Below, piece by piece: positions 5,943 to 24,189 of a stretch of DNA of 24,189 nucleotides. The stretch's first letter is position 1. Every line of letters starts with the position of its first letter. A program made the translations under genes and the position numbers. Source of the stretch: Candidatus Thorarchaeota archaeon SMTZ1-45 (lineage in GTDB: Archaea; Asgardarchaeota; Thorarchaeia; Thorarchaeales; Thorarchaeaceae); NCBI GenBank assembly GCA_001563335.1, contig LRSL01000020.1:1-24189 (forward strand). The letters run 5' to 3'. The notes beneath the pieces were generated by a model that was given only the letters and a program-made list of their open reading frames with translations, searched no databases and had not been told where the DNA came from.

Positions 5943-6112
5943 TGGTGGGCCGGGCGTGATTTGAACACGCGACCACCGCACGTTTGAACGCGCTTGCAAA
6001 TCAAGCGTATGTGTCAATGCGGTATCTAAGCCATTTCGCAAACGAATTTGCGATACTATAGCTGTTTCGCAAACGAATTTGCAAATCCATAGCCGGGCTA
6101 GACCACCGGCCC
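5943..6112 (-). tRNA. tRNA-Val(GAC) with encoded CCA; 30-nt canonical 37/38 intron (5982-6011) and 62-nt D-arm insert at 22/23 (6027-6088) made of two tandem 31-nt introns
   Basis: Mature reconstruction GGGCCGG TG GTCT AGCCCGGCTA TGAT A CCGCA TT GAC AG TGCGG TGGTC GCGTG TTCAAAT CACGC CCGGCCC A CCA (78 nt). BHB helix TTGA/TCAA at the canonical intron; TTTTTAAT about 30 nt upstream. Confidence 0.9.
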
Positions 6113-8612: not shown

Positions 8613-8691
8613 TGGTGGGATGTGGTGGGTTTGAACCACCGATCTTCGCCATATAAGAGCAATGTCATTCACCAAGCTAGACCAACATCCC
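8613..8691 (-). tRNA. tRNA with anticodon TAT (Ile-UAU) on a Val-type body; possibly a pseudogene
   Basis: GGGATGT TG GTCT AGCTTGGTGAA TGAC A TTGCT CT TAT AT GGCGA AGATC GGTGG TTCAAAC CCACC ACATCCC A CCA; full cloverleaf with two G.U pairs in the anticodon stem. Confidence 0.75.
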
Positions 8692-8693
8692 AT

Positions 8694-8767
8694 TGGTAGG
8701 CCAGGAAGGACTGGAACCTTCGATCTTCGCCATATCAGAGAGATGTCATTCGCTAGACCACTGGCCT
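8694..8767 (-). tRNA. Degenerate tRNA with anticodon GAT (Ile) on a Val-type body; likely a pseudogene
   Basis: AGGCCAG TG GTCT AGCGAA TGAC A TCTCT CT GAT AT GGCGA AGATC GAAGG TTCCAGT CCTTC CTGGCCT A CCA; D-loop lacks G18G19, T.C mismatch in the anticodon stem, T-loop TTCCAGT. Confidence 0.65.
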
Positions 8768-9850: not shown

Positions 9851-10309
9851 TCATGTATAATCTTTCATCAATCCCCACTCTTCCACCTTGCTTTCTTCCG
9901 GTTTTCGAGCAATGAAATAAACCTTAATTCTCGCTTGATCCAACTTGGACTTTTTTTCGAATAATTTTCGATCACCAAAACGAAATGTTTCCAAAACAAG
10001 ACCAAGCTCTCTTCGAAAGACAGACTCCCTGAAACTAGAGGAACCAAGACCTCGACCAACCTCACAATAGACATGTAGTGTTGGTCCTTCTGTGTCATTT
10101 TTCCACTCTGCTAAGACTTCATCTCGCATTAATCGAGTGTACCACCCGCGTATCTGTTTCCTATCATAATCTGGTCCAATTGTCAAGAAAAGATCTCCAG
10201 TCCGATCAGAATGAGTTAGTGTATAGGTGCGTGGATGAATTGGTACCTCCTCGGTCGTAGGAGGATTAAACCGTACATGGAGTTTCTTTGGATTCAATCG
10301 TCGCATCAA
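9851..10309 (-). CDS. Staygreen (SGR)-family protein, Mg-dechelatase homologue
   Basis: LNPKKLHV, PRTYTLTHSDRTGDLFLTIG, RDEVLAEW, LHVYC, F.REL..VL......D, V.F......EEWG signature. Confidence 0.88.
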   Translation of the reverse strand: MMRRLNPKKLHVRFNPPTTEEVPIHPRTYTLTHSDRTGDLFLTIGPDYDRKQIRGWYTRLMRDEVLAEWKNDTEGPTLHVYCEVGRGLGSSSFRESVFRRELGLVLETFRFGDRKLFEKKSKLDQARIKVYFIARKPEESKVEEWGLMKDYT

Positions 10310-10390: not shown

Positions 10391-10497
10391 TGGTGCCGCG
10401 GCGCGGATTTTTCGGCCACAAACTCGTAGTGAGTCTATGTGAACCGCGGACAACACGGTCTTCAGCCGTGCGATCTCCCTGGCTGATCTACCGCGGC
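10391..10497 (-). tRNA. tRNA-Phe(GAA) with a 30-nt non-canonical T-loop intron at 56/57 (10411-10440) and encoded CCA
   Basis: GCCGCGG TA GATC AGCCAGGGA GATC G CACGG CT GAA GA CCGTG TTGTC CGCGG TTC|intron|AAAT CCGCG CCGCGGC A CCA; TTTATAT about 34 nt upstream and a T-tract downstream. Confidence 0.92.
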
Positions 10498-11682: not shown

Positions 11683-12255
11683 CTACGACTTCTGTGATTC
11701 AACTTTGAACCACTCGCCATGGTCTTCACACTGGTGTAGATCAAATCCCACTTCTGAAACAATCTCCAAAATTCTTGGAAGAGTCTGGTTCTGTCCTCCT
11801 CTCAGACCATACCCAGTCTTGGATAGTGTTCCATCAGGGAAAGTAAAAGTAACCCAGAAAATTAGACTATCCCCAATTTCTGGAATGCGACTAGCCAGTA
11901 TTGATAGTTTACCATTCCTCTTGAGAACCCGATATGCCTCTTCAAGGACTGTACGTTTTGTGTTCCAGTCACTCATAAAACCCAGTGAGAACCATAAGGT
12001 CACAGTATCGAAAACTGAGTCCTTGAAACAAAGATGTCCACCATCTGCGACGAACCAATTTGATGAATTACCGTGAATCTGAGCCTCTTTAATCTCACTC
12101 ATTCTGATATCTAGAGCACAGACCCTCTCTCCCTCAATCCTAGACACAAGACCCTCTCCGCCACCCCCAATGTCTAAAATTAGACCTTCAGTGGTCACCC
12201 TTTCAAGTTTGATTTTTTGAGGAGGAGTCTCGATATGAGTTTGAGATTCCGACAT
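11683..12255 (-). CDS. Class I SAM-dependent methyltransferase
   Basis: ILDIGGGGEG motif I, ALD, FKDSVFDTV, EAYRVLK..G. Confidence 0.88.
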   Translation of the reverse strand: MSESQTHIETPPQKIKLERVTTEGLILDIGGGGEGLVSRIEGERVCALDIRMSEIKEAQIHGNSSNWFVADGGHLCFKDSVFDTVTLWFSLGFMSDWNTKRTVLEEAYRVLKRNGKLSILASRIPEIGDSLIFWVTFTFPDGTLSKTGYGLRGGQNQTLPRILEIVSEVGFDLHQCEDHGEWFKVESQKS

Positions 12256-12258
12256 GGT

Positions 12259-12888
12259 TTATTCCCCATCGACATCCTCTATAAAATCAGCCAAATCCTC
12301 GAGAATCTGATCAAAATTAGGTATATGCTCAAGTGCGTGTTGATGGGCTTCTTCGGCATCTCTGCTTCGTCCCTCCTCCTCATAAAAATTGATCAAATTC
12401 AACCATCCAACAAAGTGCTCTGGTCTAATCTCTATAGCCCTCTTCAATGCCTGTTCGGCTTCGTCAGTCCTTCCAAGATTAGAAAGGATGACACCTAGAT
12501 TACACCATGTATCAGAGTCCTCTGGATTTATCTCAGATGCCCTCCTGAATGCAACCTCTGCCTCCTCAAGTCGATCCGTGGCATTATAGACACACCCAAG
12601 ATTATACCACACATCTGACTCATCATTGTTATGCTCTAATGCTCCCTTGAGTGCCTGCTCCGCATCATCAAAGCGATTCTGGACAAATAATACAGCCCCC
12701 AAATCTCGCCATGCATCCACAAAAACGGGATTCAGGTCCAAAGCTGTTTGGAATGCAACCTCAGCCGCTTTCAAGTCCCCCTCATCATAATGAATTCCTC
12801 CAAGTTCATACCAGCTCTCTGGGTCTTTTGTATCCCTTTTCCTCTCTTGAAGTTCTTTACCTAGGGTTTCTCGGATTGAATCATTCAT
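12259..12888 (-). CDS. Tetratricopeptide repeat protein (about 5 TPRs)
   Basis: 34-aa periodic W..LG......A...F..A....P units. Confidence 0.92.
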   Translation of the reverse strand: MNDSIRETLGKELQERKRDTKDPESWYELGGIHYDEGDLKAAEVAFQTALDLNPVFVDAWRDLGAVLFVQNRFDDAEQALKGALEHNNDESDVWYNLGCVYNATDRLEEAEVAFRRASEINPEDSDTWCNLGVILSNLGRTDEAEQALKRAIEIRPEHFVGWLNLINFYEEEGRSRDAEEAHQHALEHIPNFDQILEDLADFIEDVDGE

Positions 12889-13025
12889 GTCTATTTCTCG
12901 CGTTGTGTCATCTAATATATCCTTGATTGTGTATCCCTCTTATCAAAAGTCTGAAAAAATGACCGAAAATAAGGAATATTACGTCGTTTCACAGACATGC
13001 ATAATGAGTAAAGGGCTTGAAAACA

Positions 13026-13655
13026 ATGGATCTCACAGATGTCACAAACATGATAATCGAGCTTGATATCGATAACGTAGCTAGTGCTGTTCAAGAGCAG
13101 ATTGATGCTGGCGCGAAACCACAGGATCTCCTGAAGGCACTCACAATAGGAATGGAAGAGGTGGGAAGAAGATACGAGAACGATGAGTACTTCCTTGCCG
13201 AGCTCGTTCTAGCTGGAGATACGATGAAAACAGCCTTTGAGATTCTCAAGCCACACTTAAAGTCTGATGCTGCTATTGATAAGTCGCCTATTGTTGCTGC
13301 TACTGTGAAAGGCGACAACCATGACATTGGTAAGAATATCCTAATCTCCATGCTTGTTTCTGCAGGTTTAGAAGTGGTTGACCTGGGCACGGATTGTCCC
13401 CCTGAGAAAATCGTTGAGGCTGTGAGGGAAACTAATGCGAAAGTTGTTGCACTCAGTGCTTTACTTACAATGACCATGAGAGAGATAGCTACAGTTGAAA
13501 AAGCACTCCGAGAAGCTGGTCTTCGGGATAGTGTGAAGATAATTGTGGGGGGTGCTCCACTCTCTATGGAACTTGCTAAGGAATTAGGGGCGGATGATTA
13601 TAGCCCAGATGCAATTGACGGAGTGAAACGGATTAAGGTTCTATTAGAGAAATAA
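13026..13655 (+). CDS. Corrinoid (B12-binding) methyltransferase protein
   Basis: N-terminal cap GMEEVG.RY...EYFLAEL, base-off motif GDNHDIGKN, DLG.D.PPE, SALLT.TM, VGGAP. The ORF track starts at TTG 13017. Confidence 0.93.
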   Translation: MDLTDVTNMIIELDIDNVASAVQEQIDAGAKPQDLLKALTIGMEEVGRRYENDEYFLAELVLAGDTMKTAFEILKPHLKSDAAIDKSPIVAATVKGDNHDIGKNILISMLVSAGLEVVDLGTDCPPEKIVEAVRETNAKVVALSALLTMTMREIATVEKALREAGLRDSVKIIVGGAPLSMELAKELGADDYSPDAIDGVKRIKVLLEK

Positions 13656-13792
13656 CATCTCCACAGTACCTGGATCATCTTCAGTCTTACCTGCAAAACA
13701 CACTTTGGCACATATGCACAATGCCTAAGACCACAAGTTGCTTTGGAATTACCACTGTGTGTCACATTATCGCTATCAGGGTGTGAGTACTT

Positions 13793-13999
13793 TTGGAAGA
13801 AGATGAGCCTGATCTCGAAACAGCGTTCAAGGTAGTAGCAATAATGCAGACGATAGCAGAAGACCTTGACGAGTCTGGAAAGAGAGCATGGCGTAAGATG
13901 CTCGGTATATCAACAAACAAATCTCCAGATGCTCACATCAAGAAAAAACAAAATCAATTCAAATCTGTTAAGAAATCAAGAAACACAAAAGGATCTTGA
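13793..13999 (+). CDS. Small hypothetical protein
   Basis: 68-aa ORF with TTG start; plausible N-terminal half and low-complexity basic tail; may be a remnant. Confidence 0.4.
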   Translation: MEEDEPDLETAFKVVAIMQTIAEDLDESGKRAWRKMLGISTNKSPDAHIKKKQNQFKSVKKSRNTKGS

Positions 14000-14034
14000 T
14001 TGAAGTCAATCTCCAAAAGATAATCGAGGACTAT

Positions 14035-15015
14035 ATGAATATGACTCAAGTAGGTGTCCCATTACCACTAGATAACAGCACATCGATTATTGACATAGGG
14101 TTCTTTGATGCTGCCGGTATCTTGTCAATCTATGTCATTAAAGGAGAACGTACATGCATTATTGACTCAGGAACTGATTCAGAGTTTCAGATGTTGTTTA
14201 ATGGGCTGAAAGAAGCAGATGCATATCCTCCTGACATTGTTGCTCTTACTCACTCTCACTATGACCATAGTCAAGGGGTACCAAAGCTAAGAGAACTGGC
14301 TGGAAAAGAGGGGCAGGAGATTGAAGTAGTAGCATCTCAAGTTGCAATCTCGTTGTTGGCAGATCAGTCCTATAACAGTGTGTTCAATGAAGAAGGGAAA
14401 TTTGTAGACATTACTGATGTAACACCTCTCAAAGAGGGCGATATAATTGATCTCGGTGGAGAAACACTCAAGGTATTTGCTACACCTGGACATTCCCAAG
14501 ATCAAATCTCATTTCTACACCAAGAGACTGGAAGGTTGTATGTTGGCGACTCATTAGGCATCTATTTGGGAGAAAACAGCTATGTCCCACCTTTCATGCC
14601 TCCAAGCTGGAACTTTGAGGCTTTTCAATCAACAATAAGTAAGTTGAAACAGATTGAATTCAAACAGATTTGTTTCGCCCACTTTGGATGCCTACCAGAG
14701 GAGAAATCTAAAGAGTTTCTCGATTTTGTGTTAGAACAGACCAAACTTTGGTGGAGTATTTTTGAGAAAGCAGATAATTCAGGAAGAGCCACTGACTATG
14801 ACCACCTCACCGAGAGAATCTTGGATGAATCAGGACTCACACTACCACATATTGAACTCTTGAGCGCGAAACTCAGGATTGGATTGAAGATTTTGAATGG
14901 TGTTAAAAAGATTAGAAGGAAACCGCCCCTTCTTGCTGCCCAAGTACTGATGCGCAACTATGTGATCCCTTGGTTGTCTAGGGGATACAAAATCTATAAG
15001 GAACACAAAATGTGA
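14035..15015 (+). CDS. MBL-fold metallo-hydrolase
   Basis: IIDSG, THSHYDHSQG (HxHxDH), TPGHS, VGD, FAHFG; GAGGA precedes ATG 14035 (ORF track start 13996). Confidence 0.9.
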   Translation: MNMTQVGVPLPLDNSTSIIDIGFFDAAGILSIYVIKGERTCIIDSGTDSEFQMLFNGLKEADAYPPDIVALTHSHYDHSQGVPKLRELAGKEGQEIEVVASQVAISLLADQSYNSVFNEEGKFVDITDVTPLKEGDIIDLGGETLKVFATPGHSQDQISFLHQETGRLYVGDSLGIYLGENSYVPPFMPPSWNFEAFQSTISKLKQIEFKQICFAHFGCLPEEKSKEFLDFVLEQTKLWWSIFEKADNSGRATDYDHLTERILDESGLTLPHIELLSAKLRIGLKILNGVKKIRRKPPLLAAQVLMRNYVIPWLSRGYKIYKEHKM

Positions 15016-15022
15016 AAAGTAT

Positions 15023-15045
15023 CTGTGAATGAAGTGAGATTTCAT
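15023..15045 (-). repeat. Weak tRNA 3'-end remnant (or a terminator hairpin)
   Basis: Reverse complement ATGAAAT CTCAC TTCATTC A CAG; shares AAGTGAGATTT with the 20873 remnant and GTGAATGAA with the 15816 remnant. Confidence 0.3.
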
Positions 15046-15099
15046 CTTTTTTGAACGATTTGTTTAAATCATCTCACGCTGTTGTGGACACGTAATCAA

Positions 15100-15783
15100 A
15101 TGGTAGGAAGTGAGAAAATCAATAGTTCATTGACATTAAGGAGAGAAGTGTTGGTTTTAGTTATCTCTGCTATTGTGATTTCTAGTGTAATCATTGTTGA
15201 CATTAGTCTTGCAGGACACGAATACAAGGTTTCTGAACCAACATTCACTCACAGATTTCCTGAAACAATCTATTTCTACAATATCAGCGAGGGAGTGAAC
15301 TTCAATGAATTCAGTTTCATAGTTGAACTCCCAGTAAATCACTCCGGTCATCATCACCTCATACCAAGGGAGATCTCTCTTCTCTTTTGGTTCAGAGATA
15401 ATGACTCTGGTGTGGATCTATCAACCTTCATTTATGCAATACAGGATGGTCCTCGAAACAGCACTTTCAGTTTCTATCTTCATGATTTTGACATGGTGAA
15501 CAAGTATGAAAATGGCTGGTGGTCTCCAACCCTGCTCACTTTCATTCTCAATGAAAACCCTGATGTGGATTCCGTTAGTTTTGGACTCTATCTAGAGTTA
15601 CTTCTAGCGAACATCAATGGGGATGACTTTGATGGTCATGAACTGAATGCTCAGCTTGAGATGAACGTGACATACTCCCGCTGGTGGTTTGGACTACCAG
15701 TTAATCGAGTCCATCAGACAATCAGCTTCGTCTTCAATCTTCCAGACGATGGAGTAGCAGACGTCCAATCCTTGGAATACTGA
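15100..15783 (+). CDS. Hypothetical membrane-anchored or secreted protein
   Basis: N-terminal hydrophobic helix followed by an aromatic/Asn-rich domain with several N-x-S/T sites; ORF track start 15082. Confidence 0.75.
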   Translation: MVGSEKINSSLTLRREVLVLVISAIVISSVIIVDISLAGHEYKVSEPTFTHRFPETIYFYNISEGVNFNEFSFIVELPVNHSGHHHLIPREISLLFWFRDNDSGVDLSTFIYAIQDGPRNSTFSFYLHDFDMVNKYENGWWSPTLLTFILNENPDVDSVSFGLYLELLLANINGDDFDGHELNAQLEMNVTYSRWWFGLPVNRVHQTISFVFNLPDDGVADVQSLEY

Positions 15784-15815
15784 TCACCCTAGAATAGTAA
15801 TTGTATGCAGATTAT

Positions 15816-15838
15816 TGGTGAATGAATTAAGAGTTGAA
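15816..15838 (-). repeat. Weak tRNA 3'-end remnant
   Basis: Reverse complement TTCAACT CTTAA TTCATTC A CCA: T-loop-to-CCA spacing is exact but the T-stem does not pair. Confidence 0.3.
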
Positions 15839-15986
15839 TGATCTGCGAACGAAGGCAGAGAAGTACAGATAATGCGTTAAATAAACGATTTATATATTGG
15901 ACATCCTATATATTAATATCCGATGCCCAGATGATTCGCATGATCTCACATAGAATCTCACTTCAAGGCTACAGAGGTCATGAACT

Positions 15987-16514
15987 ATGAAAGAAGAAAT
16001 CAAAGGAAATATTCTCAACCCATTGCCAATAGCGCTAGTAGGGGCTTTAGTAAAAGGGAAACCCAACTACCTTGTGATTGGTTACATTTCCCCATTCAAT
16101 TTTGGGAAACATGTTTTCTTTAGTCTGTATAAAAAACGCTACACACGAGTTGGTATCCTAGAAAACATGACATTCAGTGTAAACATCCCCTCTATAACAA
16201 TACTTGAAGAAACACAACTATGCGGAAGTAAATCTGGTCGTGATTATGACAAGTCTTCCCTCTTTGATTCATTCTATGGAGAACTGAAAACAGCTCCAAT
16301 GATTAGAGAATGTCCCTTAAACATGGAATGCGAGGTCGACCAAATAATCGACTATGACCTTAACGAGGGAATCATTGGAAAGGTCGTCAAATCATATGCG
16401 GATTCCAACACCCTGATTGATGGCAAATTGGATATCAGAACAGTACATCCAATATTATGGTCTACTTGCGGTGACTTCAACTACTACCATATTGGAGCTC
16501 GAATAGAAACTTGA
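15987..16514 (+). CDS. Flavin reductase-like FMN-binding protein (flavoredoxin family)
   Basis: P.PIALVGA...GKPN, FSVNIP, CGSKSGR..DK, APMI.ECPLNMECEV, IGKVV. Confidence 0.9.
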   Translation: MKEEIKGNILNPLPIALVGALVKGKPNYLVIGYISPFNFGKHVFFSLYKKRYTRVGILENMTFSVNIPSITILEETQLCGSKSGRDYDKSSLFDSFYGELKTAPMIRECPLNMECEVDQIIDYDLNEGIIGKVVKSYADSNTLIDGKLDIRTVHPILWSTCGDFNYYHIGARIET

Positions 16515-16533
16515 CATTGTGGAATTGAAACTA

Positions 16534-16563
16534 TAATGAACCAGATGAAACTCGAACTAATGA
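16534..16563 (-). repeat. Decayed tRNA 3'-end remnant
   Basis: Reverse complement TC ATTAG TTCGAGT TTCAT CTGGTTC A TTA; 4 of 5 T-stem pairs, intact T-loop, correct spacing. Confidence 0.45.
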
Positions 16564-16661
16564 ACAATTGTTTAGTCATTCAAGACCAGCTTCTGTCAAT
16601 ACCATTACTTTGATGTTAGGATTGAAAGGCAATCTCTCTATGTAGGACGTGGGTTGCAGGA

Positions 16662-17405
16662 ATGTCTGATACTCTTCAAAAGCTTGACCAGATTGAGAAG
16701 ATTGTTTCACAGGACCCTAAAAAGACGCCTCCTGAAGTTCGAAAACAATTCTGGAGGATTGTACGAGAGATTAAACGCAGTCCTAATCCAGATATCACTG
16801 AAGTTGCACAAGCTGCTCGAATTAGAAATGTCCTGTTCAAGGAAAAAAGAGGACGTACCTATTCCCTTTGGCCATGCATTGTTCTGCTGACTCTGATTGG
16901 CGCACTTGGCCCAACTCTTTGGTATCTCAGACTTCTCGAGGTTTCTCTAGACTGGAATGCTTTTCTTGTTTGGACAACATCGGATTGGTGGATCTTCTTA
17001 AGACGTCTGGGAAGTTTACTTGCAGCCACTTTCTTCTTCTATCCATTGGGCAGATTGATAGCTGGAAAATGGGCTGGGATTCGGATCGACGGAATGAGTC
17101 GTGGAATGTATAATGAGCCTACATTGAAGATTGACTACGAAACATTTCTACTAACACCACCACCGAAAAGGAAGTGGTTCTTCTTCTTTGCAGGAATTTG
17201 GACAGTCATTACCTCATTTGGAATTGGTTTTGTTGGTTTCATTCTCGTTGGTGATCTATGTGGCATCATCACTGCTATTTTTCTGGGTATTAGTGAAGGG
17301 GCTGCAATCTGGAGTGGAACTACGAAGAACATCGGCGGAGAGATGGCTCACTACAATCGTGAGAGGAAGATCGAGAGAAGTTGGAAACGACAAATAGGAG
17401 CATGA
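16662..17405 (+). CDS. Hypothetical membrane protein
   Basis: Charged N-terminal domain and about 4 TM helices; GIRID.M....EPTLKIDY.TFL segment. Confidence 0.8.
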   Translation: MSDTLQKLDQIEKIVSQDPKKTPPEVRKQFWRIVREIKRSPNPDITEVAQAARIRNVLFKEKRGRTYSLWPCIVLLTLIGALGPTLWYLRLLEVSLDWNAFLVWTTSDWWIFLRRLGSLLAATFFFYPLGRLIAGKWAGIRIDGMSRGMYNEPTLKIDYETFLLTPPPKRKWFFFFAGIWTVITSFGIGFVGFILVGDLCGIITAIFLGISEGAAIWSGTTKNIGGEMAHYNRERKIERSWKRQIGA

Positions 17406-17408
17406 ATT

Positions 17409-17435
17409 TGGACCATTATGTTTCGAACTCTCGAT
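17409..17435 (-). repeat. Decayed tRNA 3'-end remnant
   Basis: Reverse complement ATC GAGAG TTCGAAA CATA ATGGTCC A; shares TGGACCA and GAACTC with the 20873 remnant; 1-nt deletion, CCA lost. Confidence 0.4.
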
Positions 17436-17532
17436 TCACAATTTGGTTGTTTTGAGAGTAAGCTAATCAAGTGATATGATTGTCCAATCCAATAAGAATT
17501 CAGATGTTTCCCTAGGTTCCGGTAGTTAAGCT

Positions 17533-18468
17533 CTACATGAATATTCTCTCTCCAGGAACTTTCGGGAACAATGTGATCTCCTTGATGTGTGACCGTTTCG
17601 TCAGGAAACGAACAAGTCTTTCAACACCAAGACCTCCGCCAGCGCTAGGACCTATCATATCTGCCTTTGCCAGCTCGAGATATGGAGTAAATTCCTCAAA
17701 TCTATGGTTTCTCTCCTTGAGTTTTCTAACGATTATTTCATACTTGTAATCTCGTTCTCCTCCAGAAAGGGCCTCACCATATCCTTCAGGATAGTACAGG
17801 TCATAATTATGGTAGTGCCCTCTTCTGACTTCATCCTCTTTATCATAGAACTCTCTCTCAAAATCAGTAATCCAGAATAAATCGTCCTCACGTTGTGAGA
17901 TACGACTACCAAACTCTTCACCAAACTCACGTCTTAGGTCCCAGCTTGAATGGACACGGAAGGGCTTTCTTGGAATCTTGATATGAGCCCTTAACTCTTT
18001 CAACTCCTTCTCGCACCTGTCCTGAACCTTAGCGAATATGTAGATGACCAAGTCTTCCATGAATGACATGAACTCATGGGCTGATGTATCTTTCAACTCA
18101 ATATCAAGTTGCGAGAACTCTAGCAGGTGATTATCACTCTGCACATCTTTCTCCAACCGAACATTCGGCGAAACAATGTAGATTCCTTTGACACCCAAGG
18201 TGGAGATTGCTACTTGCTTATGCAGAGCCATACTTTTGGTAAGCTGGAGCTTCTGATTGAGATATGTAATGGTCGCCTTGTATACTGGATGACATAGTGG
18301 ATCTGTGACAGGTGAAACAATCACAGGCATCATCTGAAGGAGCCCCTCTTGATAGAGGAACTCATGAATCGCAAGCAAAGCCTCGGACTGTATTTTAAGT
18401 ATCTCTACGATTTTTCCTTTCTCCTGTAGATATGACTCATTTGATTTCAAGACTGATGAGTAAGTCAT
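17533..18468 (-). CDS. asnA: Archaeal-type asparagine synthetase A (AsnRS catalytic-core paralogue lacking the anticodon-binding domain)
   Basis: SPVTDPL, LTKSM.LHKQ, SPNVRLE, HLLEFSQLDIE, GEALSGGER, SAGGGLGVERL; 311 aa with no N-terminal OB fold. Confidence 0.88.
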   Translation of the reverse strand: MTYSSVLKSNESYLQEKGKIVEILKIQSEALLAIHEFLYQEGLLQMMPVIVSPVTDPLCHPVYKATITYLNQKLQLTKSMALHKQVAISTLGVKGIYIVSPNVRLEKDVQSDNHLLEFSQLDIELKDTSAHEFMSFMEDLVIYIFAKVQDRCEKELKELRAHIKIPRKPFRVHSSWDLRREFGEEFGSRISQREDDLFWITDFEREFYDKEDEVRRGHYHNYDLYYPEGYGEALSGGERDYKYEIIVRKLKERNHRFEEFTPYLELAKADMIGPSAGGGLGVERLVRFLTKRSHIKEITLFPKVPGERIFM

Positions 18469-18591
18469 GTCGATAACATCCCTAGATAATATAACTCAAA
18501 ATAGTAAATCAAGAAATAGTCTTGCAACAAAAATTGGAAATAATAGCAAGAATAACAACTGAAATAAACTTTTACGGAATATTTTTCCATT

Positions 18592-19041
18592 ATGAATGAA
18601 TTAGATGATAAAGATAACAGAATCCTACTCTTACTCAAAGAGAACTCTCGCATGACTACCAAAGAGATGTCCAAAGAACTCGAAATACCACAGACAACAA
18701 TCCACAATAGAATAAAGAATCTGGCTCAGAGAGGGATTATCAAGCGATTCACAATAGATATAGACGGAAAGAAAATCGGGAAAGGACTGGTTGCCTACAT
18801 TTTATGCACAGTTTCATATCGTTCTGCAAGAGGAGAGAAGATCAATCAACTTGAGGTCGCCCAAGTAATAAAAGAACTACAGGATGTAGAAGAAGTGTTC
18901 ATTGTGACAGGTGACAATGATATGATTGTAAAAGTCGCAGTGAAAGATGTTGACGCACTGAACGACTTTGTGATTTTTACATTGAGAAACATTGAAGGTG
19001 TAGAAAGAACTGTCACTAGTGTAGTCCTCTCAGAGATATAA
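18592..19041 (+). CDS. Lrp/AsnC-family transcriptional regulator
   Basis: LDDKD.RIL.LL.ENSR....E....L......IHNRIK.L...GIIK.F; RAM domain VTGDND.IVKV...LR.IEGVERT.T.VV. Confidence 0.95.
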   Translation: MNELDDKDNRILLLLKENSRMTTKEMSKELEIPQTTIHNRIKNLAQRGIIKRFTIDIDGKKIGKGLVAYILCTVSYRSARGEKINQLEVAQVIKELQDVEEVFIVTGDNDMIVKVAVKDVDALNDFVIFTLRNIEGVERTVTSVVLSEI

Positions 19042-19168
19042 CTGCAAAGTCCGAAATAACTGCAAATTCTCTTCAGTCAGGATTGGTCTACAATAAAGTG
19101 TGTGACTCTTCTCAGAGTTAAAAAGTCTGCCAACTATTTGTGAAGTTCAAAATCCAAGAGAACAAAGT

Positions 19169-19200
19169 TGGTGAGCTAGCGTGTTTTGAACATGCGATCT
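19169..19200 (-). repeat. tRNA 3'-end remnant (Val-like), putative att scar
   Basis: Reverse complement AGATC GCATG TTCAAAA CACGC TAGCTC A CCA versus the tRNA-Val end TGGTC GCGTG TTCAAAT CACGC CCGGCCC A CCA. Confidence 0.7.
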
Positions 19201-19214
19201 CTTTAATTATTGCA

Positions 19215-19412
19215 CTATGACTCAAACAGTCTGTTAACGAGCTTACATCCATCATGGGTGGGAGGCTTGTAGAAACACATCTTCTCTGGGTCCTCCTTAG
19301 AATACCTTACACACCCCCAGCACTGACTAAACAATCGAACACCCTTCTTCTCCCTATGAGCCTTACACAACTCAAATGCTTTCTCCAAAGGAATAGAAAG
19401 TTCAGAGGTCAT
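19215..19412 (-). CDS. Small Cys-rich protein (5 Cys including CWGC), possible metal binding
   Basis: 65 aa, C-x14-CxxC-x11-C-x9-C; fills the space between two tRNA-end remnants. Confidence 0.7.
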   Translation of the reverse strand: MTSELSIPLEKAFELCKAHREKKGVRLFSQCWGCVRYSKEDPEKMCFYKPPTHDGCKLVNRLFES

Positions 19413-19479
19413 AATCTAGCTTCTCTTCTTTCTGGGAATTAAACATTTTTGCTTTTTTTAAAGGGGAAATCAATAGAGA

Positions 19480-19499
19480 TGGTTGGCCATATGAGATTC
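19480..19499 (-). repeat. tRNA 3'-end remnant truncated in the T-loop, putative att scar
   Basis: Reverse complement GAAT CTCAT ATGGCCA A CCA followed by a pyrimidine-rich tail. Confidence 0.55.
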
Positions 19500-19605
19500 A
19501 GTTTATGTGCTCTCTTTGCTTCATTGGAGTCTAAATTTCAATAATCATACTGGTTAGAACATCTAGTTCACTAGAGCAAACCATTGTCTACGCTGACTCT
19601 CAATG

Positions 19606-20733
19606 TCACTTCTCCTCAAACTGAACACATCTAACTTTTCCTTTCAATCCCGCCGCAAGACAATGGTTGCAAGAAATACACCGAGCAGGTTCCTGGTTGC
19701 CAATTTTCGCTTCTTCAGTCCAACGAGATAGAAGTGCCGGCTCACTAATCAAGGGACGACTAAGCTGAACCACATCGAAAGCAGCCTGGGAATTTCCATC
19801 TCCAGTTAGAAGCCTAACAACAGTTTCCGGAGACCGGATTCCACCCACCAGTCCAACTAAGACCTCACTGCCACGTACGATCGACTGGATAACCGTTGCA
19901 TCATCAAAGAAATATGCCTCCCCTTCATCTTTCGGATTTCGACTTGGGTTTGGTCCACTAATTATAATGCAATATGCTCCCGCCTCAGCGAGTTTCTTTG
20001 CCAGCTCGCCCACTTCCTTGGAACTTACGGTATCCGAGCTTGAGTTCACCTTCACCTGAATGGGAATATCAACCGCACGCCTCACAGCTATTACAGCATC
20101 CACCATCGCTTTGCAACGTCCTTCAATTGTTAATCCGGTGAATGGGTCATCCACTGGTCGTTTATTGAACGATGGGTCAAAGAATTGCCAAAGCCCATAG
20201 TTGTGAGCTCCATGTAGTTCAATCAGATCGAATCCTGCTTCAACTGCACGTTTGGCTGCATTGGCATATGCTTGAGTGACTCTTTCTATATGCTCCACTG
20301 TCATAGCTTTTACTCGAACAACATCCCCCTTAGGTTGAGGGGCATCCATCTCACTAGGTCCAAATACTGCATCGATGCCTGTCACTCTTGGAAGGCTCCT
20401 GCTCCCGCAATGAACTAATTGAGCTGCTGCAAGACCTCCTGAAGCATGAATCGCCGCAACAAGGCGTTTCAGACCTTCAACATCGCTTGGTCTTGAATTG
20501 GAAATCATGCGCTTGACTGCCTGTCCCTCATGCATTACATATTGAAAACCAGTTACCACGACACCTGCTTTGATTTTACCATACGTTTCGATGACAGTAT
20601 CTCCGCATATCCCATTCTCTTCCGCTTGACTCATCCAAGTAGCGGCTCGCATAATTCGGTTGGGAACCACCATGCCATTTGGCAATTCGAGTTTCTTGAG
20701 TACAACACGTTCCCAGGTTTCTTGCTTTACCAT
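19606..20733 (-). CDS. NADH:flavin oxidoreductase (Old Yellow Enzyme family) with a C-terminal Cys cluster
   Basis: NRIMRAAT, QLVHCG, AA.RA.EAGFD.IELHGAHNY, VGGIRS, SRPLISEP, CISCNHC-x9-C. Confidence 0.92.
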   Translation of the reverse strand: MVKQETWERVVLKKLELPNGMVVPNRIMRAATWMSQAEENGICGDTVIETYGKIKAGVVVTGFQYVMHEGQAVKRMISNSRPSDVEGLKRLVAAIHASGGLAAAQLVHCGSRSLPRVTGIDAVFGPSEMDAPQPKGDVVRVKAMTVEHIERVTQAYANAAKRAVEAGFDLIELHGAHNYGLWQFFDPSFNKRPVDDPFTGLTIEGRCKAMVDAVIAVRRAVDIPIQVKVNSSSDTVSSKEVGELAKKLAEAGAYCIIISGPNPSRNPKDEGEAYFFDDATVIQSIVRGSEVLVGLVGGIRSPETVVRLLTGDGNSQAAFDVVQLSRPLISEPALLSRWTEEAKIGNQEPARCISCNHCLAAGLKGKVRCVQFEEK

Positions 20734-20872
20734 CGAATCAACTCACATTTTCTTCTCTCTCTCGTACTCGAAAGGCAGAACTCTCCACTTTCTTTCACTC
20801 AAGCATGAAGGAGCATCTGACAAAGTGATATACACCCATTATATAGGCTTGGTGTGATGCCAAAAGAAGGAG

Positions 20873-20916
20873 TGGTGGACCAAGTGAGATTTGAACTCGC
20901 TACCTCCTATTCGCAG
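20873..20916 (-). repeat. tRNA 3'-half remnant (Ala-like: T70, TGC at the anticodon position), putative att scar
   Basis: Reverse complement C TGC GA ATAGG AGGTA GCGAG TTCAAAT CTCAC TTGGTCC A CCA followed by CTCCTTCTTTT; no D-arm or 5' acceptor strand. Confidence 0.75.
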
Positions 20917-20970
20917 ATTGTACGAATCACAACCATGTTTCTGAAACACTAGCAGTAAGAGTTTAGTGTG

Positions 20971-21171
20971 TTAACGATGCAGAGTAACAGCTGATCTCCC
21001 AGTCATCCATTTGTTATGTCGCGTAATTTGCTGCACATTTTTCCTATCTATTGGTGCAGGTATTTTATCTTCTCTAGATTGCTTTCTAGGAATTTTAATT
21101 TCTTGTGAGTAGTCTTGAACGATTACCCTATGTTGCGATTGGTTACACTCTTTTTTCCTAGCTATCATCAT
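20971..21171 (-). CDS. Small basic hypothetical protein (about 66 aa)
   Basis: MMIARKKECNQ...RHNKWMTGRSAVTLHR; the longer ORF-track extension to 21327 runs through AT-rich promoter-like DNA. Confidence 0.5.
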   Translation of the reverse strand: MMIARKKECNQSQHRVIVQDYSQEIKIPRKQSREDKIPAPIDRKNVQQITRHNKWMTGRSAVTLHR

Positions 21172-21254
21172 TATCACAAACTGATAATAAATTATCATAA
21201 AATAATATAAAGTTATCTGAAATTGAAAAGATATACTCATGAAATGATGATAAT
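21170..21254. promoter_or_regulatory. Cluster of TGATAAT/ATTATCA half-sites
   Basis: ATTATCA 21170-21176, TGATAAT 21182-21188, ATTATCA 21191-21197, TGATAAT 21248-21254. Confidence 0.5.
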
Positions 21255-21317
21255 TGATTGATGTTTTGGTCTGCAGCATTTTGAAATAACAGAACACCCG
21301 CATACTTGCAGGAATCA

Positions 21318-21977
21318 CTAAAAACAATCTTGGAGTTTCTTCACTAATTCAGGGTGATTTAAAATAATCCCCAAAAAGGCGATATAATCGAGAGTCTTAA
21401 TCATATTTCCCCATTCACCTGAGAGGATTTCATCCAATTTTCCTTTGTCGTCCGCCTCTGCAAGTTTCGTAATCTCATCGCTCATTGCTATACTAATCTC
21501 ATTTGTAACTTCACGTAGACATGACTCGGTTTCTTTTGACCCACCATGTAAAATCATTAATCCTCCCAAAACTCGATTGATTAAATCTATGCCTTCTTTA
21601 GACATTTCTGGAGGGAGGCCATAATGGAAGAGTTTTGCTGTTCGCGAGAAGAGTGTTTCAGATGCAGTCTTTCCAAACTCAACTCGCTTTCCTCCAGGTG
21701 TCACAAGACCCTCCTTTTCTAGAGCTTTGAGATATCTGTAAATTGTGTTATAAGACTTAGACCCAACAATTTCGTGGTCAGCAGCTCTTAACTTGTATGC
21801 GTATTCAATCTCTCGGATGGTCATAGGACGTTTTCGTAGAATCTCAATTATGATGTAGTAATTCGGATCTTCAAGCAGTCTTATTGCTTGAGGTGAATCT
21901 ATTATTTTCACCAATGTGGGTGTAAAATGTAGTACATCCTGCGTTTTGCCAACTTCAGGTGTCTTTCCATTCGTCAT
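21318..21977 (-). CDS. Winged-helix (ArsR-like) transcriptional regulator
   Basis: L.DP....IIEILRKRPMTIREI...KS..TIYRYLKALEKEGLV...G.R......ETLFSRTAK. Confidence 0.82.
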   Translation of the reverse strand: MTNGKTPEVGKTQDVLHFTPTLVKIIDSPQAIRLLEDPNYYIIIEILRKRPMTIREIEYAYKLRAADHEIVGSKSYNTIYRYLKALEKEGLVTPGGKRVEFGKTASETLFSRTAKLFHYGLPPEMSKEGIDLINRVLGGLMILHGGSKETESCLREVTNEISIAMSDEITKLAEADDKGKLDEILSGEWGNMIKTLDYIAFLGIILNHPELVKKLQDCF

Positions 21978-22222
21978 CTCTCATGTCACTTATTAATTGC
22001 TACCAGCTTGTGGTATAACATTTTCGTTTCAAGGCAATGAATTCTCATATTTTGGGAAAAATGAGTCCATGGAATCAGCCTGAACTACAATCACCTGGAT
22101 AGCGCAGAAGAAATGACGGACAATGCACTTGCATTTCAATGTTTATCTGGCGTTGACACAAATAATTATGAATCAACCAATCACCAGAATCGTTCAATAG
22201 AGGTCTGTGGAGGATTGGAACA

Positions 22223-22672
22223 GTGAGTAAAGCAGCATCAGAACGAAGCTTGGTCTTCTTTATTATAGCTGCAATCATGATTATACTGGTCTTAGTCCTA
22301 CCATTCGCATATCGAATAGACATTGGTCCTGGGCCTGACTCAATTAGAGCTATGACTTGGGACTACATCGAGTCAACCTGGTATTCAGGATTCAGATTTT
22401 GGAATCCTCTAGATACGCTTCCATACACTATTCTAAGGCTCGTATTTGCTGTATATTTGGCTAGATTCTGTTTAGGAAGTACCACTGCAAAGACAACAGT
22501 CCTCATAGGAATTCTTGCTGAGCTACAACCAATTATTGTTTCAGCTCCACTCGTTTACTTCATTGACTGGTCCGGGGATCCATTAGTCCCTCTATACATA
22601 CCAGTACCGATCATGTTACTATTAGGTATAATTCTTGTTCTCATCCTCAAAGGCAGGTATGCTAAAGACTAA
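22223..22672 (+). CDS. Hypothetical four-TM membrane protein
   Basis: Hydrophobic segments, IPVPIMLLLG C-terminal helix; GTG start with upstream GGAGG. Confidence 0.75.
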   Translation: MSKAASERSLVFFIIAAIMIILVLVLPFAYRIDIGPGPDSIRAMTWDYIESTWYSGFRFWNPLDTLPYTILRLVFAVYLARFCLGSTTAKTTVLIGILAELQPIIVSAPLVYFIDWSGDPLVPLYIPVPIMLLLGIILVLILKGRYAKD

Positions 22673-22693
22673 GGTTAGCTGGTGAGGCATAGA

Positions 22694-22724
22694 TGACGGA
22701 ACAGGCGAGATACGAACTCGTGAC
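22694..22724 (-). repeat. tRNA 3'-end remnant (G73), putative att scar
   Basis: Reverse complement GTC ACGAG TTCGTAT CTCGC CTGTTCC G TCA; 4 of 5 T-stem pairs and exact spacing. Confidence 0.65.
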
Positions 22725-22820
22725 GATTTCTGTCTAAGGAGCCTAAGAAACGCTTTAGCGGATGATTATTAACCAACACCTAACACTGGAATTTAGATTG
22801 GCTAGGGATAAGGGGTTGTC

Positions 22821-24189
22821 ATGAAAAGAAGTGAACTGCTTGCAATTACATCTGTTGTAGTCACGCTTTTGTTGGTTTCTCTATTGTATCTTGCATCACA
22901 AGGATTCTGGAATGGGGCAACTGATTCTTCACCTGATATAATCATATATAATGGTGAAATCGTGACTATGGAGCAATCCCCCGCCCAAGTCGAGGCTGTA
23001 GCCATCCAAGGTGAGTATATTGTTGCTGAAGGCGATGAGAATGATATCCTCGCGATGGCAGGACCAAACACCCAATTCATCGATCTTGAAGGAAGGACAC
23101 TCCTACCGGGTTTCAATGACGCTCATTCTCATCATATAGGTGACCGGAGTTATGTGAACCAATCAACAGCAGAAGAAGTGATTGAATCAGTACTTAGCTG
23201 TGGATGGACTAGCATTTCTGAACTCTTTGTGAATCAAGAACGACTGGATGGACTCATATCTTTGGATCAACAGGACAACCTTCACGTTCGTGTCAATGCC
23301 TATCTTCCACTAAGCTGGCAATTTGATAGGTTCGGCAATTGGTATCAAGCTTATCAACCCGGACAAGAATATAGTTCAAAGCTGAGGATAGGAGGAGTGA
23401 AGATCTTCATGGACGGTTGGATCACCAATTGGGACCACTATTTCGACCAGACTGAATTGGCTGGACTCGTCAAGGAAGCTCATGATGCTGGGTTCCAGAT
23501 TGCTATACATAGTGTTACGGACACTGCTACAGATGTTGTCCTGAACTCGCTCGAATCGGCCCTAGATGGGCAATCGAATGATGCGTATAGACACCGTATT
23601 GAACATCTTGTCCTACTCAGAAACGAGCAAATGCAGAGAATGAGCGACCTTGGAATTCTCGCTTCTTTCCAACTCACATGGTTCAACTCAGATGATGTAG
23701 AATATTACCAATTTCCGATTTATGAGGAGTATTCGGACCTTATAGCAAGATGGCGAGATATTGTAGAAGCGGGAATACCCTCACTCGGAAGTACTGATTT
23801 TCCGTGGAATCTGGGAGAGCATAGATCTGCTATGAGAGCGGTTTCTTTAGCAGTCACTAAAATCGGGGACAAAGGGCTCACTCCCCCTGATTGGATGTTG
23901 AATCAGTCCCTCAGCGTGGAGCAGGCCCTCCGGCTCATAACAATCGACGCGGCTTACGGCACATTTCAAGAAGACACTAAGGGGAGCATTAAGGTCGGGA
24001 AACTTGCAGACCTGGTGATGCTCTCAGACAATCCCCTGACAGTTTCGGAAGACAATTTGGCTGACATAGAGGTGCTTATGACGATGGTTGGAGGCGTTGT
24101 GGAATACACTGCTCCTGGACAACAATTTCTATCTGCAAGGTGCGTGGGAGCTGGCAGTCAAACAGAAGAGGGCGCAAACCAACCGATCA
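22821..24189 (+). CDS. Partial amidohydrolase family 3 (YtcJ-like) protein with an N-terminal TM anchor/signal; runs off the right edge
   Basis: Manual translation: MKRSELLAITSVVVTLLLVSLLYLA..., IYNGEIVTM, IDLEGRTLLPGFNDAHSH, VKIFMDG, QIAIHS, RHRIEH, GSTDFP, KGSIKVGKLADLVML. Absent from the ORF track because it has no stop in the window. Confidence 0.92.
   Translation, partial: MKRSELLAITSVVVTLLLVSLLYLASQGFWNGATDSSPDIIIYNGEIVTMEQSPAQVEAVAIQGEYIVAEGDENDILAMAGPNTQFIDLEGRTLLPGFNDAHSHHIGDRSYVNQSTAEEVIESVLSCGWTSISELFVNQERLDGLISLDQQDNLHVRVNAYLPLSWQFDRFGNWYQAYQPGQEYSSKLRIGGVKIFMDGWITNWDHYFDQTELAGLVKEAHDAGFQIAIHSVTDTATDVVLNSLESALDGQSNDAYRHRIEHLVLLRNEQMQRMSDLGILASFQLTWFNSDDVEYYQFPIYEEYSDLIARWRDIVEAGIPSLGSTDFPWNLGEHRSAMRAVSLAVTKIGDKGLTPPDWMLNQSLSVEQALRLITIDAAYGTFQEDTKGSIKVGKLADLVMLSDNPLTVSEDNLADIEVLMTMVGGVVEYTAPGQQFLSARCVGAGSQTEEGANQPI

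Follow-up and report, generated by a model that had tools for sequence, protein, structure and literature searches.

The stretch of DNA considered here, hereafter the window, is the entire contig C20 (LRSL01000020.1; 24,189 bp) of Candidatus Thorarchaeota archaeon SMTZ1-45, whose 3.54-Mb genome comprises 119 contigs and is 87.7% complete. The part of the window between 13.7 and 24.2 kb is probably the far, older portion of an ~18-kb hypervariable cassette array anchored on the 3' end of a tRNA-Ala(GGC) gene. Each cassette holds one or two genes, begins directly after the CCA of the preceding tRNA fragment and terminates in a repeat of the final 22-35 nt of tRNA-Ala. The fragments near the tRNA are nearly intact, while those in the 5-6 kb beside the core (from the peroxiredoxin to the B12-binding genes) are eroded, mostly from G/C to A/T. 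In what follows, G-numbers denote genomes of relatives, L-numbers extracted loci and C-numbers contigs.

The original prediction, made from the letters of the window, had placed an intact, co-oriented tRNA gene beyond its right edge, and such a gene does lie there: tRNA-Ala(GGC) at C15:51490-51566, ~7.9 kb past the junction between C20 and C15 and on the minus strand in window orientation. The last 9 nt of the window (24181-24189) are identical to the first 9 of reverse-complement C15 (C15:59443-59451), and the frame of an amidohydrolase gene runs across the join (...NQPI|KMEMISTPNQKEKWWTGRD...) for 37 further codons, the orthologue in G010 reading ...NPLIKMEMIDTPNKNEEWRTGLD... and having the same C-terminal motif. 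In five relatives, the DNA following the amidohydrolase gene also matches the first 65 nt of reverse-complement C15 (76-91%). Seven more Ala fragments, all in the same orientation, lie on C15 between the junction and the tRNA gene, and in both G010 (L020) and G005 (L022) the same array ends in an intact tRNA-Ala(GGC) of the same orientation. Beyond the tRNA, the DNA is a housekeeping core that is 78% identical to, and collinear with, that of G014 over 13 kb; beside the anchor stand genes for a proteasome subunit, FttA, SepF, a helicase and a PUA protein. Two minor features of these ends can be mentioned. Here as in relatives, the amidohydrolase reading frame extends at its end across the next tRNA-Ala fragment (WWTGRD), and in several congeners (L025 G014:C57:2519-2626; L017:15424; L018:8258) the tRNA-Ala(GGC) apparently has an insert of ~26 nt in the T-arm. 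This insert sits where the homology of the fragments starts, and ARAGORN miscalls or misses these genes.

Within the window, the fragments (scars) were scored with two profiles. The general profile (28 nt: T-arm, acceptor strand and CCA) was made from 38 tRNA 3' ends of the genome itself, whose tRNA genes encode the CCA, and was scanned over the whole genome. The Ala profile, which is gapped, was made from 52 tRNA-Ala-type fragments gathered from 18 loci of relatives and chosen for their Ala-like acceptor end; its null is 3.0 million genome positions, and its P values are per spacer. The best minus-strand position in each spacer coincides with the place where a tRNA-tail scar had been noted, and with the Ala profile the plus strand of the spacers gives no more than background scores. 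Among the 92 matches above 8 bits that the general profile finds outside called tRNAs, scar 20873 ranks 6th (31.8 bits) and scar 22694 ranks 19th (18.8 bits), the remaining claimed scars falling below 8 bits. With the Ala profile, P is 4e-4 for 20873, 2.4e-3 for 22694 and 0.033 for 19169, then 0.065 for 16534, 0.08 for 17409, 0.16 for 15023 and 0.61 for a candidate at 15816. On their own sequence, 20873 and 22694 are thus strong, 19169 is borderline and 16534, 17409 and 15023 are near background. When 41 tRNA 3' ends are compared with the window by BLAST, only the three good scars exceed background. No Rfam family falls on the scars; a weak SNORD27 match (14991-15060, E 4.6) overlapping 15023 was taken as chance. 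In the spacer 21978-22222, the best score is 1.5 bits (P 0.39), with no recognisable scar.

All of the scars are on the minus strand. The rightmost, at 22694..22721, is a tRNA-Ala-type 3' fragment with T-arm, acceptor strand, G73 and TCA (ACGAG-TTCGTAT-CTCGC + CTGTTCC-G-TCA; 17.3 bits with the Ala profile), and forms the left end of the amidohydrolase cassette. The best-kept one, ~35 nt long and ending in CCA, occupies 20873..20907, with 20873-20900 reading GCGAG-TTCAAAT-CTCAC + TTGGTCC-A-CCA, at the left end of the cassette or cassettes holding an HTH protein gene and a small gene, o22223. The cassette of an old yellow enzyme (OYE) begins immediately left of this CCA. The DNA downstream of the CCA is kept in four relatives, and in one of them this flank follows a putative intron-bearing tRNA-Ala (as read here; the ARAGORN call is Glu). 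A decayed Ala fragment that the original prediction did not include closes the OYE cassette at 19480..19503 (6.3 bits); it is recognised by orthology, since the intact fragments that follow the OYE stop in G012, G001 and G014 can be aligned with it in every column. At 19169..19196, a decayed fragment of Ala or Val type (GCATG-TTCAAAA-CACGC + TAGCTC-A-CCA; 11.6 bits, 17 of 24 positions matching, one gap) closes a mini-cassette with a 65-aa Cys-rich open reading frame (ORF; 19215-19412, minus strand). As had been described, scars 19169, 20873 and 22694 combine a mostly paired T-arm, each with four of the five T-stem pairs, with a CCA or TCA end.

Farther to the left, stem pairing and CCA are lost, again as noted earlier. 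A strongly decayed Ala fragment at 17407..17430 (scar 17409; 4.5 bits) forms the left end of a cassette with AsnA-like and Lrp genes; together with its upstream flank, it aligns with a good Ala fragment left of the G011 orthologue (L019:768-795). Just right of the stop of a flavin-reductase gene lies a decayed Ala fragment at 16534..16557 (5.5 bits), and a good fragment stands in G020 at the same distance from the stop of the orthologue. This scar had been said to differ from a tRNA end mainly by C-to-T changes, and compared with the genome's own tRNA-Ala(GGC) end it does so, with eight changes that are all transitions, six of them C to T. A nearly erased candidate at 15024..15050 (scar 15023; 0.8 bits), 8 nt past the stop of a metallo-beta-lactamase-fold (MBL) hydrolase gene, has AAATCTCACTT in common with scar 20873; in G011, a good fragment follows the MBL orthologue, and the alignment of 15023 with it is ambiguous. 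Lastly, a possible erased fragment, non-significant and likewise new, follows ORF 15082-15783 at 15816..15841 (-0.9 bits), and in G020 a good fragment adjoins the orthologue of this ORF.

The gradient of decay that had been perceived in the window is found in the scores. For the six scars originally named, score rises with position (Spearman 0.89, p 0.019), and over the nine spacers of the window the coefficient is 0.73 (p 0.025), the other strand giving 0.02. When the best fragment score of each spacer is set against the distance from the anchor tRNA, the score falls with distance over C20 and C15 together (n=19, Spearman -0.60, p 0.007; other strand +0.24), also after removal of three artefactual spacers (n=16, -0.57, p 0.022). 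The same holds in G005 (n=13, -0.77, p 0.002; other strand -0.35) and in G010 (n=18, -0.60, p 0.009; other strand +0.11). Together, the six scars between 16534 and 22694 carry 36 substitutions (25 transitions, 11 transversions), 27 of them from G/C to A/T; 753 chance profile matches show 2215 transitions vs 2032 transversions (Fisher p 0.027 against the scars). A test of the transition bias against an expectation of 1/3 (p 1e-5) was dropped as overstated, because chance matches already show 52% transitions. It had further been expected that cassettes on the left would be more ameliorated, and they are indeed more host-like in synonymous codon choice (rho +0.51 with tRNA distance, n=21; +0.56, n=18, without doubtful ORFs), although the values of short ORFs scatter and the low scores of atypical cassettes are matched by some core genes. 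Neither G+C nor GC3 changes systematically along the array. The scar series also provides a rough internal clock of insertion order.

Comparison of cassette sharing and order across 24 congeners, with 18 extracted loci mapped, gives a different picture of chronology. All 24 hold pieces of window 14000-24189, at 65-83% identity and in differing orders. The 18 loci consist of a conserved core (tRNA-Phe, peroxiredoxin, o11096, methyltransferase, TPR and B12-binding genes) followed by a variable stack of genes separated by fragments. Cassettes on the left are not more widely shared, contrary to what had been proposed: no trend is seen (Spearman +0.18, p 0.63), the number of congeners per cassette at the DNA level being, from left to right, roughly 3, 2, 7, 3, 2, 13, 1-2, 5 and 6. 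The order also varies between species. In the window it is OYE, HTH, o22223, amidohydrolase; the amidohydrolase precedes OYE in G010, G004 and G002, o22223 adjoins OYE in G018 and G019, and in G014 OYE stands directly behind the putative intron-bearing tRNA-Ala (called Glu by ARAGORN). In G001 and G012, the fragments are opposite in direction relative to the core genes. As the same cassettes occur in different orders, the array is a reshuffled one and not the clean chronological record that had been suggested. The identity of cassettes to those of relatives (64-84%) lies within the range of core genes (67-82%), which fits old, rearranged cassettes. In the amidohydrolase, OYE and AsnA-Lrp units, the fragments mark both limits of the interspecies homology. 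These borders are exact: the conserved stretch opens directly behind the CCA of the fragment before it and extends to the end of the fragment that belongs to the cassette.

Exact borders of this kind, from a CCA to the cassette's own fragment, are the structure expected of a one-site circle recombining with a tRNA 3' end. It can be hypothesized that cassettes enter as circles with a single attachment site identical to the tRNA tail, and that the circle recombines with the tRNA 3' end in the Campbell manner, which would restore the tRNA and push older cassettes away from it. Later recombination between any two fragments could excise, delete or re-insert cassettes and would scramble their order between species, while fragments out of use would drift by neutral decay to the genomic G+C content of 42%. 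The recombining enzyme would act in trans. The chances are about even that the small cassettes are moved by a recombinase encoded elsewhere, either on an element that escaped binning or belonging to an undescribed family. That they are what is left of larger elements which once carried an integrase, since reshuffled by recombination at short homologies, is conceivable but rather doubtful. A more speculative proposal, and an unlikely one, is a family-wide, integron-like capture of genes in which several tRNA 3' ends serve as docks, cassettes of one or two genes are cut out, put back and exchanged, the 22-nt tail is their only mobility signal and the trans recombinase lies outside the detectable tyrosine and serine families. 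With units this small and no recombinase recognised, the arrays point to a helper element that escaped binning or to an undescribed enzyme, and either would matter for understanding gene flow in the archaeal relatives of eukaryotes.

Several observations count against a tRNA-anchored array mobilised in this way. The join between C20 and C15 rests on 9 nt and orthology, with no spanning read. The four leftmost scars are individually non-significant (P 0.065-0.61; Fisher-combined about 0.055). The gradient is a step more than a slope: spacers near the tRNA, up to 4.5 kb away in G005, ~10 kb in G010 and <=13 kb here, mostly score 17-42 bits with a few near zero, and fragments in the 5-7 kb adjacent to the core score below 9 bits; nor are the three gradient tests independent, because some core-proximal cassettes are common to all three genomes. 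Logan contigs of four public runs, which are blind to rare variants, show one order and no excision joints over 12000-24189, and none of them extends past the end of the window. Nor was a recombinase found. PF00589 has no match in the genome even at E<=10, nor do PF00239 and PF07508, although the absence of a recombinase is not proven since the genome is 87.7% complete. A PF00589 match occurs in eight of 28 genomes of the genus, and none lies beside an Ala fragment in 14 contexts (12 around these integrase matches and two G020 arrays), one integrase, at G018:C202, adjoining a tRNA fragment of non-Ala type. Among 100 array ORFs from 12 loci, none matches a recombinase family in Pfam. A recurrent array protein of ~225 aa (own copy C15:56281-56943 = L002:5779-6444) was considered as the mobilising enzyme and rejected; it has methyltransferase motifs (FxGxG, TSPIF), PF01555 is its sole match, and its paralogues in the genome are not near fragments. 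The gene for this methyltransferase-like protein is present in five of the 12 arrays scanned (L020, L022, L024, L032, L033), two of which contain it twice, and the DNA adjoining its fragment is conserved in two versions.

The derivation of the scars from a single tRNA is itself a departure from the original prediction, in which they came from several tRNAs (Val, Ala and one with G73) and a single recombinase recognised a generic T-arm/acceptor shape. This proposal now appears highly improbable. It can draw on scar 19169, in which 18 of 21 positions agree by eye with the T-arm of tRNA-Val(GAC) in the window, on the G73 of 22694, on the arrays that the genome holds at other tRNAs (Leu-GAG, Gln-TTG, one Cys copy, Gly-like and Thr-like stacks) and on the lack of any specific integrase found in the genome. 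However, all scars of the window fit the single identity Ala. Scar 20873 matches tRNA-Ala(TGC) over 33 nt at 91% (30/33) by BLAST, and by eye has 3, 4 and 5 mismatches to the tRNA-Ala genes TGC, CGC and GGC; the Ala identity proposed for it therefore stands, while the TGC upstream, cited in its favour, lies outside the stretch aligned with tRNA-Ala. The G73 of 22694 does not indicate another identity, as in G010 and G005 the orthologous amidohydrolase gene is accompanied by Ala fragments with which this scar can be aligned, upstream flank included, and the G010 fragment likewise has G at position 73. The assignment of 19169 to tRNA-Val is not upheld either: by eye it fits Val and the Ala 'CACGC' T-stem variant about equally, the GCGTG/CACGC stem being present in tRNA-Ala(GGC) of G005 and in many Ala fragments, and its acceptor part is too eroded to choose between them. 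Most of the 52 fragments of relatives end in ...CCCGGTCCACCA, about a dozen differing by 1-3 letters; between cassettes, most read ...TCGAATCTCGCCCGGTCCACCA, all on the strand of the window's scars. Every array seen has a single tRNA identity, that of its own anchor. With one identity for all its scars, this array does not require a recombinase that recognises tRNA shape in general.

It could also be argued that the array comprises only 19169-22724, so that the scars from 15023 to 17409 would be chance matches, the genes left of ~19 kb ordinary chromosome and the gradient no more than the edge of the array. The per-spacer P values on the left (0.065-0.61), chance matches of up to 12 bits elsewhere in the window (12722, plus strand; 13375, minus strand) and the genome-typical codon usage of the left genes agree with such an edge. 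It is nevertheless unlikely, as good Ala fragments flank the orthologues of these very genes, namely MBL and AsnA-Lrp in G011 and flavin reductase and o15082 in G020. Moreover, the left genes occur in other orders, the eight changes of 16534 include no transversion, and the best match of every spacer lies on the expected strand beside a gene end. The fragments might also be kept for a function, for example in ending transcription or, by mimicking a tRNA end, in directing RNA processing, with those near the tRNA intact through selection. Their position near gene ends and the T-rich tract that they carry from downstream of the tRNA (CCA, then ttct/cttc) would suit such a role. Yet cassette genes lie on either strand relative to the fragment, most fragments begin within the T-loop so that a T-arm hairpin is impossible, orthologous fragments decay freely (19480, 17407) and Rfam gives no match on the scars, all of which leaves a conserved signal with hardly any probability. 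The tRNA-anchored cassette array remains the preferred reading.

Some properties of tRNA-associated genomic islands are present here, namely direct repeats of a tRNA 3' end that lie downstream of the tRNA and on its strand, at 22694, 20873, 19480, 19169, 17407 and 16534 and seven times on C15, a co-oriented anchor tRNA, and borders at repeats with movement of whole blocks; an integrase in the element or in the genome was not found with PF00589, PF00239 and PF07508. In Prochlorococcus, a model of polar pushing has been put forward for tycheposon islands with scattered partial tRNAs (bioRxiv 10.1101/2020.12.28.424599). According to the parts of that source available, these islands are likewise hypervariable and tRNA-adjacent, with elements separated by partial tRNA copies, but tycheposons encode a tyrosine or serine recombinase themselves, in many cases along with replication genes, and the islands retain fragmented integrases. 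In contrast, the units here are 0.3-2 kb long with one or two genes, and no integrase or fragment of one was found in the arrays or the genome. The CIMEs of Streptococcus, as described in the accessible portion of PMC5704250, have lost their integration genes, keep attL and attR, and undergo accretion at tRNA genes. The present units resemble them in being flanked by att-like repeats without integration genes of their own. However, CIMEs are decayed ICEs or IMEs of many kb, bacterial and mobilised by a related ICE (PMC5704250), whereas the arrays described here belong to an archaeon, have up to ~17 very small units each and come with no identified helper.

Among archaea, elements integrated at tRNA genes have a partial 3' tRNA copy at their far end, and tandem integration and integrase loss are on record (PMC8371274, PMC9897764). 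Those reported in the sections available are viruses and plasmids of 9-23 kb, unlike the single-gene units here, and the texts of PMC8371274 and PMC9897764, as far as available, describe no arrays of single-gene units and use the word 'Asgard' 0 times. Large elements at tRNA genes are described in the Heimdallarchaeum paper. Similarities also exist with integrons, including archaeal ones (PMC9668308, from the portion available), in that ordered, mostly single-gene cassettes stand at a fixed site, are each closed by a recombination site and are reshuffled between relatives. Unlike in integrons, no IntI-type integrase was found (no PF00589 match, and none among the genes beside the tRNA), genes are not co-oriented but lie on either strand, and entry is at a tRNA gene instead of attI. 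In place of the attC hairpin, the repeat is a linear 22-nt tRNA tail, most copies of which are without the 5' half of the T-stem. In the literature covered, at the level of titles and abstract openings and with subscription journals uncovered, no stacks of single-gene cassettes closed by tRNA tails are described in Asgard archaea.

Similar structures are not limited to tRNA-Ala. In the same genome, like stacks follow tRNA-Leu(GAG) and tRNA-Gln(TTG), one copy follows tRNA-Cys, and Gly-like and Thr-like stacks are also present. Six of the 38 tRNAs were flagged with tail copies, of which one, within the Ala array, is an ARAGORN false positive and another is just a neighbouring tRNA gene. The tRNA-Leu(GAG) array (L001, C34:10448-12586), whose first fragment repeats even 12 nt past the tRNA, the Gly-type array (L003, C39:1953-5143) and the tRNA-Gln(TTG) array (L004, C101:2011-3491) have single-gene cassettes of 0.5-1.7 kb. 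Of 44 sampled genomes of the family, 19 have at least four copies of the 22-nt Ala tail (<=2 mismatches); none of 157 sampled from the rest of the phylum does. In these Asgard archaea, such arrays would be a main route by which accessory genes, among them those for redox enzymes and hydrolases, are gained and shuffled.

The cassette genes lie on both strands, in the window as in other arrays, and most cassettes have a single gene. From left to right, the window contains the MBL-fold hydrolase gene (13996..15015, plus strand; PF00753), found between other cassettes in G011 and G022; o15082 (15082..15783, plus), with no Pfam match and with orthologues in arrays of G020 and G019; a flavin reductase-like gene (15987..16514, plus; PF01613), present in 6 to 8 congeners; and a gene for a membrane protein with no Pfam match (16662..17405, plus), with full-length matches in three congeners. 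The two-gene cassette 17533..19041 then combines a class II aminoacyl-tRNA synthetase-like gene of AsnA type (minus; PF00152) with an Lrp/AsnC regulator gene (plus; PF01037), and this pair stays together in G011 and G012. The gene for the NADH:flavin oxidoreductase of the OYE family (19606..20733, minus; PF00724) is found in 13 of 24 congeners at differing array positions. The stretch 20971..22672 represents one or two cassettes, with the HTH protein gene (21318-21977, minus) and o22223, which encodes a small membrane protein (22223-22672, plus); in relatives, these two genes stand apart. The amidohydrolase gene (22821..24189, plus; PF07969) is cut at the contig end and continues in frame into reverse-complement C15. 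According to Pfam, array cargo in general includes FMN reductases, beta-lactamase-fold and NosD-like proteins, a small methyltransferase, and TIR and PLD proteins. In G010, the cassette nearest to the tRNA (L020:10048-11688) has a TIR-domain protein beside a PLD-like nuclease, which looks like a defence pair.

The window also contains tRNA genes outside the array. Two that are detected by both ARAGORN and Rfam, at 8613-8691 and 8694-8767 (minus), stand 2 nt apart, with anticodons TAT and GAT; their D-arms and anticodon arms are nearly identical while acceptor stems and T-arms differ, and in the second the T-loop (TTCCAGT) is unusual and the anticodon stem contains a mismatch. A third, at 5943-6112 (minus), appears once introns are allowed in ARAGORN, which labels it Lys(CTT) with one intron; read by eye, it is a tRNA-Val(GAC) with two introns, the 'tRNA-Val' of the original prediction. 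Of its two inserts, one, containing repeats, follows the D-arm and the other is at the anticodon loop. A fourth, missed by both ARAGORN and Rfam, is an apparently intact tRNA-Phe(GAA) at 10391-10497 (minus) with an insert of ~30 nt inside the T-loop. In relatives, a tRNA-Phe is likewise found beside the peroxiredoxin gene, in some cases followed by a second 3' fragment of Phe type. Finally, the 152-aa protein encoded at 9851-10309 (minus) has a strong, full-length Staygreen match (PF12638, E 9e-45), which is unexpected in an Asgard archaeon, this family being known mainly from plants.

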